Positions 12,593 through 19,299 of a stretch of DNA of 64,000 bases are shown here, one piece after another. Position 1 is the first letter of the stretch. Each line of letters begins with the position of its first letter. The DNA comes from Polyangiales bacterium (GTDB taxonomy: Bacteria > Myxococcota_A > Polyangia > Polyangiales > Polyangiaceae), in NCBI GenBank assembly GCA_038231275.1, contig JBBRLQ010000010.1:1-64000 (forward strand), written 5' to 3'. Made by a program: the position numbers and the translations under genes. Below the pieces are notes generated by a model. It was given only the letters and a program-made list of their open reading frames with translations, searched no databases and had not been told where the DNA came from.

Positions 12593-15500
12593 TCAGTCGG
12601 TGACGTCGACCGTCGTGGTCCCCATCGTGCGGTAGTTCGTGTCGATGTAGTCGACGACCTCCATGAACCACGAGTCCATCTTGGGTCCGTCGGCTTGCGG
12701 CGACTCGTTCCAGAAGGTCCCGCGGATGCACTCCGGCGCGCCGCTCGTCCCGATGCGGCAGCGCCCGTCGACGTATACGACGATGAACTTCGGCATGCGC
12801 GTCGCGTACGATTTTTCGGCCGCGTTCATGAAGTTGTTGGTGATGATCGCGACGGCCTCGAGGTCGCGCGGATCTTGCCCGTACCCGTGGAGGACGTACA
12901 AAACGGGGTATTTCACGTCGCGGACGCGGTTGTCCTCGTTCGCGTAGCCGGGCGGTAGCGTGATCGCGATGGGGCCGGTGCGGTGGGTGCCCGGTCCCGT
13001 GAAGACCTTCTCGCAGCGCCCGGTCTTCTCGCACTCGAGGCCTAGCTCGTTCTTGGTCGTCGTTTGATCGTTGTCGCGCGCGAGGAGCGACTGCGAGCGA
13101 TCGGCGTCGCCCCAGCTCTTGGCGACGAAATAGAACGAGGTCTGGAGACGATCGAGGAGCTGGTCGGCGGTGCCGACGTGTTGCCCGTCGCCGTTGGTGA
13201 TCATCGCCGCCGTCGCGTCGACGGTGCCGTAGCGCACATTCGGGAAGTCGGGGATGTCCGCCCAGAGCAAGTTCGCGCCGACGTAGTTCTGCGGCTTGCC
13301 GGGCTGCTGTCCCGGGAGGTAGTCGAAGCCGTTGTAGAACGCCGTGGTGCGGAGCTGCGTGCCGTCGGCCTTGCGCCGCCCGGCGAGCGCGCCGTTGAGG
13401 TGGTTCGAGGCGACCGAGAAGTTCATCAGATCGCGGACGCCGCCGTCGGTCCACACGTCGAAGCGCATGAGCGCGTCGTCGGTGAGCGCTCCGCCAGGAA
13501 TGGCCGTATTCCACTGATGGACCATGCCGTGCGCGTCGTTCGCCTGGAAGCCGTCGAGCCCCTTCGATTGCGTGTACTTTCCATCCGATTCGCCGAAGTC
13601 GCCGGCGATGTGGAGGCCTGCGGTGCCCGCCACGCCGTCGAGGCCGAAGTCCTTGTACGGCTCGGTGTCGTCGTGGCGATGGTTGCCCTCGGTGCCGTTC
13701 GGGTTCACCTGGTAGTCGTAGTCGTCCTGGTTCGGATCGGGGTTGGTGACCGCGTCGTAGCCGGGCTCTTGCGCGTCGAAGAGGCCGTCGTCGCCGGTGT
13801 CGTCGTACGGCTCGTGGCCCTGGCTGATGACCGGCTCGGTCTCGTCGCGGAGGCCGTTGCCGTTCACGTCGACCGCGAGGCCGATCATCACCGGCGCGCC
13901 GGACGCCGCGGTTGGCTGCTGCCAGTGGTTCTCGTAGGGGCTCAGCCTCTTCTTCTTGTCGGGATCGTCGGTCGTCCCGTCGACGGCGCCGTCGCAGAAG
14001 CTGATGACCGGGTATTTGCCGTCGGGATTGTACTTCGCGTCGTAGTACCCGCTCGGCGCGACGTAGCCGTTCTTCAGGCGCCCGTTCGCATCGAGCGCGC
14101 AGCGGAACGCGTAGCACTGGTCCTGCCACTTCTTCTGCTGCTGCTCACCCGGATCGTTCGAGATCGGATCGACCGTGATCTTGCAATCGACGCCGGGCGG
14201 CATTCCCGTCGTGTCGCCGACGACCCACGGGTCCGTCGCCTTCGGCCCGTTCGGGAAGAACCAGAGCTTCGGGTCGGGGTTTTGCCCGGCCGCGCTGCCC
14301 ATCATGATCGACAGATCCTGGAAGATCTGGAGGTATTCGCTGCGCGGGAAGTGGCCGCCGTTGCCGTTGCCTTCCTGGTACCAAAAATTGTTGAAGTCCA
14401 TCGTGTGCGTGAGCGGGCCGTCGATCGGGTAGTCGCTCGGCGCGATCTTCGCGCACGTGGGGTTCGACGCCGGGCAGAAGCCGGCGAGGGCGTAGTTCTC
14501 GATGTACCAGAGGAGCCACGTCCAATCGGCGGGGCCGCCCATCGGCGCGATCGCGTCGAACTGATCGTGATGACGGAGGCCGAAGACCGACGCGCCCATG
14601 GCTCCCATCGAGAAGCCGACGACGGCGCGGTGCGTGAGCTTGCGTGAGCGGTGGCGCGTGCCGGCGTCGGGGGCGACGGCGGCCTGGTAGGTGCCGAACC
14701 ACGGCGACGCGAACTTGAGCGCGTAGCCGTCGCCGACCTTCTCGATGCGCGGGTTCGCGATCGTGATGGGGCGCGGCGCCTTCGCGCGCGGGCTCGTGAA
14801 GAGGACTTGGAGGTGACGCATGCGCGCGGCCGACGGAAACGTCGCCGGGTTGACTGGGATCGCGAAATCGATCTCGCGGTGAAGCGACTGGTTCAGCGAG
14901 AGGGGCGCTTGCGGCGTGAACGACACGGCCGGCCCGAGCGCGAGCGGCTTGCCCGGCGCGGCCGCCGTGAGATCGTCGGCGCACGCGAGCGCCGCGTTGA
15001 ACGACGGCAGGACGCGCGTGGCGGCGTTGTCCTTGTTGACGTCGCCTGGCGCGAAGGCCATCGCCGGGACCGAGAGGGAGGCGCTGGCCAGCGTGCCTTT
15101 GCCCTGGAGGACCGCGGGGGGCGCGGCGGTCTTGCCGTCGCTCACCGCGAACATCACCCCCTGCGCGCTCTCTCCCTTCGTGCACGTCGGCGCAGCGCCG
15201 TCGCGGACGTCGACGTCGAGCGACGCGGTGACCGGCGGATCCGTGGACGGCTTGAGCTGCCCGCCGACCTGGTCATCCGCGAGCGGCAGCGTCGCCAGGA
15301 TCGACGTCGTACCAATGGCGCCGCCGGTCAGCGTGAACGAGTAGGTCGCGTGGCGATAGTCGAGCTTCGCCGGAGGCGGTGGCTGCACGACCGACGCGCC
15401 CGCGCCGTCCACCGCAAAGGTTGCGGTCGGCGTGTTGCAGATGTCGGGGTCGACCGTCATCGTCACGGTCCGCGTCTGCCCTGGCGCGAGGACGACGTGC

Positions 15501-15670
15501 GGCGGATCGAAACGCATCGCACGCGCCGTGGGATTCGTCGTGTCGCAGACCTCTCCAGGCAGCAGAATCGGGCCGGTCGGGGTCGGCGGCGGGTTCGACG
15601 TCGTGGACGCGCAGTCGAAGAGGATGATCGCGGCAAGGAGACCGAGGGGGCGTTTCACGCGGCGGAGCAT
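12593..15670 (-). CDS. Large lipoprotein with an esterase (alpha/beta-hydrolase) domain and Ca-binding-like repeats
   Basis: Signal peptide ending in Cys (ILFDC); GFSMG nucleophile elbow; LPPGY and YPVLYVLHG; DVNGNG/DxGxDG repeats. Confidence 0.75.
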   Translation of the reverse strand: MLRRVKRPLGLLAAIILFDCASTTSNPPPTPTGPILLPGEVCDTTNPTARAMRFDPPHVVLAPGQTRTVTMTVDPDICNTPTATFAVDGAGASVVQPPPPAKLDYRHATYSFTLTGGAIGTTSILATLPLADDQVGGQLKPSTDPPVTASLDVDVRDGAAPTCTKGESAQGVMFAVSDGKTAAPPAVLQGKGTLASASLSVPAMAFAPGDVNKDNAATRVLPSFNAALACADDLTAAAPGKPLALGPAVSFTPQAPLSLNQSLHREIDFAIPVNPATFPSAARMRHLQVLFTSPRAKAPRPITIANPRIEKVGDGYALKFASPWFGTYQAAVAPDAGTRHRSRKLTHRAVVGFSMGAMGASVFGLRHHDQFDAIAPMGGPADWTWLLWYIENYALAGFCPASNPTCAKIAPSDYPIDGPLTHTMDFNNFWYQEGNGNGGHFPRSEYLQIFQDLSIMMGSAAGQNPDPKLWFFPNGPKATDPWVVGDTTGMPPGVDCKITVDPISNDPGEQQQKKWQDQCYAFRCALDANGRLKNGYVAPSGYYDAKYNPDGKYPVISFCDGAVDGTTDDPDKKKRLSPYENHWQQPTAASGAPVMIGLAVDVNGNGLRDETEPVISQGHEPYDDTGDDGLFDAQEPGYDAVTNPDPNQDDYDYQVNPNGTEGNHRHDDTEPYKDFGLDGVAGTAGLHIAGDFGESDGKYTQSKGLDGFQANDAHGMVHQWNTAIPGGALTDDALMRFDVWTDGGVRDLMNFSVASNHLNGALAGRRKADGTQLRTTAFYNGFDYLPGQQPGKPQNYVGANLLWADIPDFPNVRYGTVDATAAMITNGDGQHVGTADQLLDRLQTSFYFVAKSWGDADRSQSLLARDNDQTTTKNELGLECEKTGRCEKVFTGPGTHRTGPIAITLPPGYANEDNRVRDVKYPVLYVLHGYGQDPRDLEAVAIITNNFMNAAEKSYATRMPKFIVVYVDGRCRIGTSGAPECIRGTFWNESPQADGPKMDSWFMEVVDYIDTNYRTMGTTTVDVTD

Positions 15671-15814
15671 AGTCCGGCGACCGCCGTTCTCAGGCATCGC
15701 CGCTCGTTGGAACGAGCGCGCGGCGCAAATGAGACGCGGGGGCTCGACCTCTGTCTCGTGTAGGACGCTGCCGCACCGGGCACGCCCACGCGCGGGTTAG
15801 CGCTTCACACGGAC

Positions 15815-15871
15815 AAAAGAAAAGTGCCCACGCAAAGGGGCCGGGGGGGCAGCCTCACTTCACGCAGGCAC
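15815..15871 (-). ncRNA. Candidate sigma54-dependent small RNA (single hairpin, C-rich loop, U-tract), or a terminating leader
   Basis: - strand GTGCCTGCGTGAAG-TGAGGCTG-CCCCCC-CGGCCC-CTTTGCGTGGGCAC-TTTTCTTTT; the G-U pairs work only on the - strand; the 5' end sits at the predicted sigma54 +1. Confidence 0.6.
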
Positions 15872-15880
15872 TGGCCCTTT

Positions 15881-15896
15881 AGCATTACGTATGCCA
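15881..15896 (-). promoter_or_regulatory. Sigma54 -24/-12 promoter
   Basis: TGGCATACGTAATGCT on -; GG and GC at the canonical 12-bp spacing. Confidence 0.7.
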
Positions 15897-15958
15897 GGCC
15901 CTCTTCGTCATGGTTTCGCGTAGTTCAGATGCGATTCGGCGCCCTTGTCGTGCAAGTT

Positions 15959-15974
15959 TGAAATGTCCATTTCA
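15959..15974. promoter_or_regulatory. Palindrome, candidate enhancer-binding-protein site
   Basis: TGAAATG-TC-CATTTCA, about 90-100 bp upstream of the predicted sigma54 start. Confidence 0.5.
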
Positions 15975-16038: not shown

Positions 16039-19000
16039 TCATTTACGTGTGCAGCGGAGCGGGTATCGCATCTGGACGGTCCGCGAGCTCGCGGAGACGA
16101 CGACCACCGGGATGGAGCCCGCCGGAGCCGGCCGAGTGGGGCCCGAACGGACGAGCGCGGCGGCCTGATCGCCCCCGAGAGCGCCCATCGTGCCTGCCAG
16201 GCGCTCCACGCAGGCGGCCGTCGGCGTGATGCGGACGCGTGCGTCCGTGGTCGAGAGCGAGCCGGCGCTTTTGCCGGCGACCTGAATTCGGACCCCGTTG
16301 TTCCACGGCGTGTCGAGCACCCACCCCGCGTCGTCCTCTCCGCAGAGCGGCACGGCCCCGCGATCGCCGAGGTCCGCGGCGCCGAGCGGCTCGGGCTCGC
16401 CGAGGGCTCCGGTGTCGACGTCGATCGGCAAGACCCAGCGGAGGGCGCCGGCGCGATCGGGGCTGGGCTGTCCGTCGACGACGAAGCCCAGGGCGCGGCT
16501 GTCGGAGCGGCGCGCGAGCCTCGACCCGCTGGGCCGCGAGTCCATCCCGGCGCGCGGGACGCGGGCGAGCTCACGCGCGGTGGCGCCGTCGAGCTGCAAG
16601 ATCACGTTGGTCCACTCGGTCGCCGGTGGCGTCGAGAGGTACCAGCGCCCGCCCATACGCACCGCCGACTCGATCTCGCCGAACGGCTCGCCGTCGGCGC
16701 GTCGCACCTCCACCGGCGCGCGCCCTTCTTCCAGCTCGAAGAGCGTGATCTCGTAGCCGCGCCCGTTCGATTTTCGCGCGGCAAGGAGCGCGTGCGCGCC
16801 GTCGTCGGAGACGCCGAGCTGCCACGTGGCCATGATCGGCACCGAGCTCGGTGAGGCGAAGCGGGCGGCGTCGAGGAGCATCTGCGGAGGCGCTGACGGA
16901 AGGGACGCGCGCACGTCTTGCCAACCGCCGAACGGAGAGACCCAGCGCGCGACCCATCGGCTCGCGTGCTCCCACTCGCCGTTCTTCGGTCCCCACGCGT
17001 AGACGCGCGCGAGCGGCCCGGTGCGGGGGAAGCGCTCGAGCCGCTCAGCGGCTTCGGCGGTGACGCCGCGCTCGTCGGGATGGAGCGTCGGCGGCGGCGA
17101 GACGTAGAACGGCGGCAAATCCATGCCGGTCGACGCGCCGAGGACCGAGATCGTCGCGCCGCCCCACGGGTTCATGATCGCGGTGCCGCCCCTCCGCACG
17201 GGCTCGGGCGGCGCCGCCGCGCGACGAGGCTCCGGCGGTGTCGGCGGCGACGGCATCTGCGGCTCGCACACGAGCTGGAGCGGCTCGGGTGATCGCGTTG
17301 GCGGCGGGCGCGGTGGCAACGGGACGTCGATCGCAGAGGACTTGCGTGGCGGACCCCAGCCGACGCGAAGCCAGCCGGCCGCCGTGCACCCGACCGGCCC
17401 GCACGCGCGCGCGCCGACCGCGCGCGCTGGCGTGAGCACGTCAGGAAGCTCGATCGGAGTCCACGTCATCCCACCGTCGATCGTCTCGACGCCGCGCCGT
17501 GACGCCGCCCACCCAAGGCCGTAGCGCCCGGCGACCATCGGCGCACCCGCGTCGTGGATGAACGGGCCGTGCGTGGTCCTCCCGTCGAGCACGATCTCGA
17601 GACCAAGCACCGCGCCGCCGGTGTCCACCCATCCGCCGAGCACGCCGGGCCGTCGCTCCTCCCAGCCGTCCAGCCACACGCCGAGCCGCAGCGCGCGCAC
17701 CACGTCTGCGGCAAGAGGCGCCGCGGGATCCGCGCCGCGCCCATGGATCGCGAGCGGCACCGTCTTCATGTCGACGCCATTTTTTAGGGTCAACCGCGCG
17801 GCTTCGAGATCGCCGTGAGGGACCGAGATCACCGCGATGCGCCCGTCGCCGAGCACGACGAGCCGATCGCCTGCCAAGGTGCCGGTGATCGGCAAGAGGT
17901 ACGGCGCGCCGCCGCGCGGGAGGACGCAGTACGACTGCGGCGGCGGTCGGACCCCTTCGCGATCGAGCGGAGGCGGAGCCGTGACGCCAGGATCTGCCCC
18001 TTGCGGATCGCACGTCCCGCGCGCCGCGACGGCGCCGTTGCCGAAGCCGAGGAGCGTGCGCGGCCGCTCGAAGCGCCACCTCTCCTGAAGCGCGCCGCGA
18101 GCGGCGTCGTACGCGTAGAGCACGGTCGGGCCGCGCACCTCTCCGCAGACGAAACCGAACGCGCCGGGCGCGCGCTCCGTCGGCAGCGCGAGGGCATGGC
18201 ATCGCGAAGGGGTGAGACGGAACGCGTCCGGCACATGCTCCACCAGCGCGCCGTCGCCGAGGCGCACGCGCGAGAGTGCGCCGTCGCGGGCCACGATGAC
18301 GGTCCCATCGCGGAGCGGCCACCCGTCCTCGATCGCCGCGACGAGCGGTCGCTTTCCCAGCGGCCGCGCGCCCTCGAGGGCCCCCCTCTCCTTCTCACTC
18401 TGCTTCTTCTCTCTCTCTCTCTCTCTCTCGCTCTCTCTCTCGCTCTCTCGCGCATGGAGATCGTCGCGATCGCCCTTCGCGGGAGGCGTCACCGGGCTCG
18501 CGCCGAGGCGACCGACCTGACCGTCGGGGCGCACCTCGAACCAGACCTCGTCGCGCGCGGCATCGAAGCCGCCCACGGCGATCTGTCCGTCGTGGAGGAG
18601 CACGTTCTTCACGTCGAGCGGGAGCTGCAGCGGACGCCACGTCGCGCCTGCGTCGAACGTCGCGACGGCACCTCGGAGATCGTTGACGGCGACCGCGCGC
18701 CAGCCGTCGGCCGCGACGTAACGCCCGACGAACGACGAGCCCGGCCACGGCCCGAGATCGAGCCGCGCGCCTGTGCGTCCGTCGATCGCCGTGTGCGCGC
18801 CGTTCGACGCACGGAGGTACACGCGGTCGAGGCCGAGCACGACGCTCTGCACGCTGGCGGTCGACTGGAAGATCGGCTTTGCCTCGGCGAGCCACTTGTC
18901 GGCGCGCCAGATCGTGCTCCCGAGGCTGCCGCTTCCGAGGACGAACAAGAATCCGCCGCCGAGGCGCTCGGGCAGCGCGATCGTCTGCAGCGGCGCTTGC

Positions 19001-19299
19001 GGGAGCCGCTCGTCGCTCGCGAGCACGGCTCCTGTCGGCAAGCTCACGACGCGGATGCCCGCCGCGATCGCGCGCAGCCCTCCTCCTGGCTCCACGCCGA
19101 GCGCGCGATCTTCGTGAACGGTCTCCGGCAACACGCGCGCGCCGCGCACGGTCGGGTCCGCCTCGGCGCCCGCGCCGTCCGCGTGGAGGCTACCGGCGCC
19201 CGGCGCGAACGCCGCGGGGCCAGGCCGCGCGCACGACGCCACCGCGAGCCCCCCCAAGGTCGGCAGGATCAGCGCCCGCCACGGCCAACGAACCGACAC
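16039..19299 (-). CDS. Large hypothetical lipoprotein (beta-rich, Asp-box-like motifs)
   Basis: Lipobox VASC; TFDAGATW and TIDGGMTW BNR-like motifs; Pro-rich linkers. Confidence 0.7.
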   Translation of the reverse strand: MSVRWPWRALILPTLGGLAVASCARPGPAAFAPGAGSLHADGAGAEADPTVRGARVLPETVHEDRALGVEPGGGLRAIAAGIRVVSLPTGAVLASDERLPQAPLQTIALPERLGGGFLFVLGSGSLGSTIWRADKWLAEAKPIFQSTASVQSVVLGLDRVYLRASNGAHTAIDGRTGARLDLGPWPGSSFVGRYVAADGWRAVAVNDLRGAVATFDAGATWRPLQLPLDVKNVLLHDGQIAVGGFDAARDEVWFEVRPDGQVGRLGASPVTPPAKGDRDDLHARESERESEREREREKKQSEKERGALEGARPLGKRPLVAAIEDGWPLRDGTVIVARDGALSRVRLGDGALVEHVPDAFRLTPSRCHALALPTERAPGAFGFVCGEVRGPTVLYAYDAARGALQERWRFERPRTLLGFGNGAVAARGTCDPQGADPGVTAPPPLDREGVRPPPQSYCVLPRGGAPYLLPITGTLAGDRLVVLGDGRIAVISVPHGDLEAARLTLKNGVDMKTVPLAIHGRGADPAAPLAADVVRALRLGVWLDGWEERRPGVLGGWVDTGGAVLGLEIVLDGRTTHGPFIHDAGAPMVAGRYGLGWAASRRGVETIDGGMTWTPIELPDVLTPARAVGARACGPVGCTAAGWLRVGWGPPRKSSAIDVPLPPRPPPTRSPEPLQLVCEPQMPSPPTPPEPRRAAAPPEPVRRGGTAIMNPWGGATISVLGASTGMDLPPFYVSPPPTLHPDERGVTAEAAERLERFPRTGPLARVYAWGPKNGEWEHASRWVARWVSPFGGWQDVRASLPSAPPQMLLDAARFASPSSVPIMATWQLGVSDDGAHALLAARKSNGRGYEITLFELEEGRAPVEVRRADGEPFGEIESAVRMGGRWYLSTPPATEWTNVILQLDGATARELARVPRAGMDSRPSGSRLARRSDSRALGFVVDGQPSPDRAGALRWVLPIDVDTGALGEPEPLGAADLGDRGAVPLCGEDDAGWVLDTPWNNGVRIQVAGKSAGSLSTTDARVRITPTAACVERLAGTMGALGGDQAAALVRSGPTRPAPAGSIPVVVVSASSRTVQMRYPLRCTRK
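18408..18449. repeat. (TC)n microsatellite inside the CDS, encoding a Glu-Arg run
   Basis: Perfect (TC)11 at 18408-18429, then interrupted CT repeats. Confidence 0.85.

Follow-up and report, generated by a model that had tools for sequence, protein, structure and literature searches.

A sigma-54-type promoter and a C-loop hairpin between two protein genes

In the 64,000-nt window, the whole stretch of DNA that was analysed, the minus strand between a gene for a 1086-aa protein and a gene for an esterase-domain protein carries a sigma-54 box, a single long hairpin with a C-rich loop and a U-tract (Table 1). These elements, together with an upstream palindrome, had been described in an earlier note made from the sequence, and all of them were found on the minus strand where that note had placed them, including the exact GG-N10-GC spacing of the promoter box. 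The 9.28-Mb genome has rpoN and, this box included, 19 strict matches to the promoter pattern, and the 16-nt palindrome is the sole occurrence of its own pattern there. The proposed position of the transcription start stood as well, with the correction that it lies one base inside the stem and not on its first base. A simple terminator scanner did not call the hairpin (0 found). It is well supported by the sequence comparisons below that the locus is a conserved independent gene for a predicted sigma-54-driven hairpin RNA of 55-60 nt, and this predicted RNA represents an uncatalogued, conserved family of Polyangiaceae myxobacteria.

Table 1 Features of the RNA locus and its two neighbouring genes (window coordinates)
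Feature	Position	Strand	Basis or remark
Upstream neighbour, 1086-aa protein, not part of the unit	16039..19299	-	No Pfam family
Leftover right half-site TGAAA of a degenerate second activator site	15970..15974	-	20 nt upstream of the main site
16-nt palindrome of the earlier note	15974-15959	-	Sequence
Predicted activator (bEBP) site TTKCA-N4-TGMAA, PxrR-type	15950..15963	.	Motif matrix
Sigma-54 -24/-12 promoter	15881..15896	-	Strict match, GG-N10-GC
Putative sRNA	15813..15872	-	55-60 nt, +1 at 15870 (+/- 2) to U-tract; ends inferred
Single long hairpin, predicted also as terminator stem	15824..15871	-	14-bp basal stem, small bulges, apical helix
Apical loop with C7, predicted to be the seed	15843..15849	-	C-run
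U-tract, predicted 3' end	15812..15823	-	T-rich run right after the stem (U-tract of the earlier note at 15823-15815)
Esterase-domain protein encoded downstream, outside the unit	12593..15697	-	PF00756 over cut-off, whole protein

On the minus strand the stretch folds better than its shuffled versions (z = -4.4 to -5.8; none of 200 shuffles equally good), and on the plus strand the same stretch gives z = +0.25. The stem has the five strand-specific G-U pairs that had been claimed, four of which lie in the 14-bp basal part and one in the apical helix. The C6 loop of the earlier note is present too and, should the last apical pair be open, becomes a G-C7 loop of 8 nt; the six loop C were unpaired with a probability of 1.0 in the fold computation. 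A C-run of 6-10 occurs in every aligned member of the family, for which both the search pattern and the models select, and in 86 of 97 aligned rows the 8-nt segment that directly follows the stem has at least five T.

The unit recurs as a covarying RNA family

BLAST with the 211-nt region recovered the hairpin in 17 of 36 genomes of the same family and in none of 24 others (E < 0.002), and the similarity was limited to the hairpin, the flanks having diverged. A covariance model from 19 sequences confirmed 78 of 80 loci taken from a pattern scan with at least 119 matches; the two that failed (L086 and L104) were left out as chance. The 97 matches retained in all correspond to 94 distinct loci of Polyangiaceae type, among which some species may occur twice, and the RNA unit thus recurs in at least 94 such loci. 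Most of the named relatives are Polyangiaceae bins, and the window very likely derives from this family. Model R1 matched 21 of 25 family genomes, as well as 9 of 9 and 4 of 25 genomes of two further families of the order (f11 and f22, respectively), and the RNA was found in 37 of the 151 genomes of the order. The one-hairpin layout and a sigma-54-like box are present in all 11 of the f11 and f22 matches listed (10 from f11 and one from f22). Matches of model R2 below about 35 bits outside the order, where this model picks up ordinary terminators, were not counted.

Two-sided changes were observed in 10 of 18 pairs among the 94 sequences and in 17 of 18 pairs among 35 diverse sequences. Covariation in the diverse set was 0.65; shuffles gave 0.22 and slid controls no more than 0.13. 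These figures overstate the significance, since the sequences are related and were aligned by fitting to the model, while the pattern itself is not in doubt. Likewise, the invariant columns of alignment A2 are not independent evidence, since it was model-fitted and pattern-selected over the apical helix and 3' arm. The earlier note had named conservation and covariation in relatives as the check on its hairpin, and both are found: the hairpin is kept across the loci, with strong covariation in the diverse set.

A second paralogue lies in this genome (G000:C7:14340-14406, plus strand; L056). Its single hairpin closes a C8 loop, and it has a sigma-54 box of its own, weaker activator sites and a gene neighbourhood conserved in several genomes. 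BLAST within the genome returned no second copy, and this paralogue surfaced only with the covariance model. Paralogues keep the loop and change the stems. In one genome (G007) the unit is tandemly duplicated with a motif and a box for each copy, and the pxr paralogues of Cystobacter are described as having their own promoter each (PMC5568312). Promoter box, activator motif, covarying hairpin and U-tract travel together as a unit.

Neighbouring genes and the terminator and attenuator readings

The 1086-aa protein encoded upstream gave no match against Pfam and NCBIfam. Weak BNR-repeat leads (score at most 0.89) and an internal RE-repeat were noticed in it, and the protein is family-wide, occurring in 59 of 80 family genomes. 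Its gene is the same-strand upstream neighbour in 81 of 94 loci by tblastn and in 88 of 94 by ORF clustering, an arrangement that would suit a hairpin acting only as the intrinsic terminator of this gene. Such a reading also draws on a plain terminator with a C6 loop elsewhere in this genome, and on metatranscriptome contigs from four datasets, which cover the hairpin of other organisms and in many cases extend through the promoters. We nevertheless consider it very improbable. Among loci selected only on the upstream protein (the best 30 of 60 matches), 17 orthologues had no hairpin, and each of the 13 with a hairpin also carried a sigma-54-type box. Moreover, paralogues of the same layout adjoin other genes, and the box, whose first base is 25-27 nt ahead of the stem in all but two of the 39 loci having one, is a conserved promoter for which a terminator has no use. 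The terminator-only reading, which the earlier note had set against its own proposal, was rejected on these counts.

The same note had offered an attenuator for the downstream esterase as its alternative, and a role as attenuator or leader of that gene has, in our judgement, next to no chance. Although the esterase is the same-strand downstream neighbour in 30 of 94 loci, the hairpin faces a convergent proC-like gene in 41 and a convergent Rieske-like one in about 14, so that convergent genes lie downstream in at least 55. Two of the 17 hairpin-free loci (L271 and L280) appear to join the upstream gene directly to an esterase-like gene, which thus stays where the unit is lost. Both readings were rejected because the genes downstream differ between loci and the unit disappears as a whole.

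In the window, an in-frame GTG of the esterase gene follows a -10-like hexamer at a distance of 7 nt (15671-15656, minus strand). The esterase probably starts at this GTG (15658) behind its own hexamer, which suggests a leaderless mRNA. Such hexamers precede crude starts in 1164 of 7732 cases genome-wide, compared with 199 in the control window; before the esterase start the hexamer is present in the window and in 9 of 30 scored loci against 15% genome-wide, a weak point against the attenuator.

An activator motif common to the family and to Pxr-type loci

The palindrome proposed as the enhancer is present in its place but is not itself conserved. The conserved element is an overlapping site, TTKCA-N4-TGMAA, of which the palindrome contains the left half together with a leftover half-site 6 nt upstream. 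This leftover half-site is also found in the two same-genus genomes, and tandem activator sites with a period of about 20 nt stand upstream of Pxr. With a matrix from 63 other Polyangiaceae loci, the site in the window scored 22.7 bits and ranked third of 11 genome sites with at least 17 bits. None of the 55 other sigma-54 boxes of this genome carries the motif (maximum 11.4 bits). Allowing at most one mismatch, all 35 loci whose only promoter pattern is a sigma-54 box have the motif, compared with 1 of 1548 control windows, and its distances fall into groups around 55-56, 66-68 and 76-78 nt, spaced by roughly one turn of the helix. The same Polyangiaceae-only matrix, from which the window's own site was excluded, also finds the motif upstream of all six Pxr-type loci, with 21.5-25.4 bits and two or three sites each. 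Five other high-scoring copies (G000:C23:123763, C1:677777, C2:611388, C2:301774 and C17:52662) have no clear sigma-54 box nearby and are possible further regulon members.

In 47 of the 94 loci (L008-L016 and L064-L140) the -24 box is gone and a TTGCWT-N17-TA pattern is found instead, with TG-C-TA in the old -12 position, giving a nearly unchanged start. By its consensus we take this pattern to be a housekeeping-sigma promoter, and a switch from sigma-54 to a housekeeping-type promoter thus appears to have taken place in these loci. The activator motif is kept in 25 of the 47, and 22 have no motif within 160 nt; both promoter patterns occur in 4 of the 94 loci, and neither was recognised in 8. 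Given these loci without a -24 box, a recognised promoter or a motif, PxrR control would not be universal in the family.

A PxrR orthologue in the genome

In a FastTree analysis of the 73 bEBP-like proteins of this genome, the one encoded at C2:66466 was sister to the PxrR clade with a support of 0.999. It is the only one of the 73 that groups with PxrR, and it keeps the PxrR recognition helix. The helix motif was found in 29 of the best 30 order-wide PxrR-like matches, and in 5 of 29 loci the DNA motif lies directly downstream of the pxrR orthologue, which is the position of the pxr promoter in Myxococcus. The motif behind pxrR often precedes a receiver-only gene. PxrR-like matches were obtained in 134 of 151 genomes of the order (E <= 1e-20) against 37 of 151 for the RNA, and co-occurrence of the two therefore adds nothing.

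In this genome, the region behind the pxrR orthologue (L231, G000:C2:67905-68460) holds the motif together with a weak sigma-54 box; a receiver-only gene also lies there, followed by queA and tgt, a layout also seen in several relatives. In another locus (L241), a motif and a sigma-54 box about 240-330 nt behind pxrR precede a small GC hairpin whose loop is C-rich and which gave no model R2 match. A G6 run before the receiver-only gene behind pxrR was considered as a feedback target and rejected, as it is absent from other loci.

We assign the motif to PxrR by inference from these co-locations. The literature searched yielded no map of PxrR binding sites, and the motif in the window offers a candidate site for this regulator. 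As the motif is common to the Pxr loci and the genome has one PxrR orthologue, the RNA is likely to be PxrR-driven and to be built like the first hairpin of Pxr.

Proposed action of the C loop on G-rich ribosome-binding regions

We think it rather likely that a PxrR-type sigma-54 activator turns the gene on and that the RNA represses mRNAs in trans, its C loop pairing with G-rich ribosome-binding regions. PxrR bound at the motif would activate the sigma-54 polymerase, and transcription would proceed from the first stem bases to the U-tract. Since start and end would flank the stem, the hairpin is predicted to be both the RNA body and the terminator; with both ends in or adjoining the stem, the RNA is also predicted to be stable without processing. 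The loop would nucleate G-C pairing without Hfq, for which no gene was found in the genome (94% complete). According to published work on Pxr, mutation of the loop abolishes function and the RNA level is not lowered (PMC5684412), and Pxr contacts map near SD sequences in proximity ligation (bioRxiv 10.1101/2025.09.11.675593). The 6C RNA is reported to use its C loops without chaperones (PMC6486639), and the window RNA has the corresponding feature, an exposed conserved C-rich loop in a genome in which Hfq was not found.

The anti-SD action proposed in the earlier note needs a correction here, since the pure C loop suits G runs far better than the canonical SD. Its calculated pairing was -12.8 to -17.2 kcal/mol with G-run ribosome-binding sites of five to seven G, compared with -5.9 kcal/mol with GGAGG, the commonest SD of this genome, with which the loop pairs poorly. 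Relative to crude gene starts, called with no SD information, GGAGG peaks at -15 to -6 and the G5 and G6 runs peak at -10 to -6, where 44 G6 runs were counted as against 2-21 in the other bins. This peak indicates that G-run ribosome-binding sites exist as a target class.

A PxrR-driven RNA could instead leave ribosome-binding sites alone and titrate a poly-C-binding protein as a decoy, or sponge up another RNA, which seems unlikely to us. The variation of the C-run from 6 to 10, the poor complementarity to GGAGG and the paralogues that retain the loop and change the stems would fit such a role, and the genome-wide scan of loop targets in 7744 start regions gave no outlier. For the first loop of Pxr, the published account leaves target pairing versus chaperone binding open (PMC5684412). 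The enrichment of G-run SD-like words at ribosome-binding distance in this genome speaks for mRNA targets instead, as do the contacts with mRNAs reported for Pxr (TRIC-seq, 10.1101/2025.09.11.675593) and for the 6C RNA (PMC6486639).

Comparison with GlmY/GlmZ, 6C and Pxr

The regulatory layout resembles that of GlmY/GlmZ in Enterobacteriaceae, whose sRNA genes are described as depending on sigma-54 together with an NtrC-type regulator of their own, and as having passed in some lineages to an overlapping sigma-70 promoter (PMC3045617), comparable to the 47 loci with an apparently replaced promoter here; RNA structure, regulator and target are unrelated. The mechanism proposed above is borrowed from the 6C sRNA of Actinomycetota, which likewise has C-rich loops in a high-GC, Hfq-free host (PMC6486639). 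In contrast, 6C has several such loops and belongs to another phylum, and the RNA described here has no Rfam match.

Pxr (RF01812), known from Myxococcus and other Cystobacterineae, is the closest likeness. Both RNAs have a sigma-54 box, an upstream TTKCA-N4-TGMAA motif and a hairpin that begins at the predicted +1 and whose apical helix of 3-5 bp carries a loop of 8 nt, seven of them C (U-C7 in Pxr and G-C7 here, with U-C7 also in some family members), and both occur with a PxrR orthologue and without Hfq. However, Pxr is about 108 nt long with three stem-loops including the conserved SL3, and the window RNA has about half of this length, with one hairpin followed directly by the U-tract and no separate third stem-loop, which Pxr is reported to need for accumulation (PMC5684412). 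The distance from +1 to the C-run is 21 nt here and 33 nt in Pxr. Whereas pxr directly follows pxrK-pxrR, the RNA gene does not adjoin pxrR, which lies on another contig in this genome (the RNA was beside pxrR in none of 30 pxrR loci), and no PxrK orthologue was shown.

The earlier note had proposed an unannotated sRNA of about 57 nt, possibly an analogue of Pxr. Conservation, covariation and the shared activator motif sustain the RNA, and the motif carries the link to Pxr beyond analogy. The Rfam scan it suggested confirmed that no family exists for the unit and returned two chance snoRNA matches but no Pxr; at the gathering score of RF01812 (80 bits) nothing was found in the region or in the genome. 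For comparison, six metagenome loci with the first Pxr hairpin were used, five of which are true Pxr loci with 111-127 bits. The sixth (L183:1846-1990, minus strand) is a divergent Pxr-like RNA behind pxrR that falls below the Rfam cut-off; its first stem has the highest family-model scores of the Pxr loci (17.7-18.5 bits), and it is a possible bridge form. A Pxr search in 151 + 401 genomes of the GTDB phylum found none, which is not evidence of absence, as the search had no positive control and Myxococcaceae seemed to be missing from the set.

In all six loci the sigma-54 box places the start of Pxr about 12 nt upstream of the Rfam start (e.g. L181:2126-2250 and L182:487-612), and from this predicted start Pxr folds into a long hairpin with the C loop and a second hairpin that is the terminator, the extension pairing with the SL2 region. 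Such a 5' end would merge SL1 and SL2 into a single hairpin. In terms of these predicted folds, the window RNA has the layout of Pxr except that its first hairpin also serves as the terminator, and it probably belongs to the same regulon as Pxr. We do not file it as Pxr, and descent from a common RNA does not follow from these comparisons.

With regard to origin, there is close to an even chance that the RNA is a PxrR-regulon member independent of Pxr that converged on a C-loop hairpin, a reading compatible with repression in trans. Besides the missing Rfam match and the separation from pxrR, the 5' arm, though similar by eye, resembles Pxr at the level of chance (median p 0.27 versus shuffles). 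The family models score the Pxr hairpin at 10.8-13.3 bits, and the 13.3 bits of model R2 lie under unrelated terminators, which reach 22.3. C-loop RNAs are moreover reported from unrelated phyla, 6C being an example (PMC6486639). The motif, sigma factor, start-in-stem geometry and N-C7 loop that Pxr and the RNA have in common argue against independence, and loss of the sequence signal is to be expected, since the stems already vary freely within the family. It is quite possible, though somewhat less likely than not, that the RNA is the minimal Pxr core, a PxrR-driven C-loop hairpin predating the Myxococcus/Polyangium split.

Pxr is described as gating fruiting-body development in Myxococcus, and its gene as confined to Cystobacterineae and arisen within this one suborder (PMC5684412; PMC8538405). 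In the literature compared, from which Chen 2014, Yu 2016, Chen 2019 and the Whitworth 2020 survey stood apart, no Polyangiaceae RNA of such kind is described. If the minimal-core reading is true, Pxr would be no recent invention of the Cystobacterineae. It would then consist of a hairpin plus a separate terminator, the processed form Pxr-S would closely match what Polyangiaceae produce directly, and an RNA of 55 nt could substitute for Pxr. With a widespread family in another myxobacterial order that has the activator motif, sigma factor and loop in common with Pxr, both the origin of Pxr and its active core become testable by complementation.
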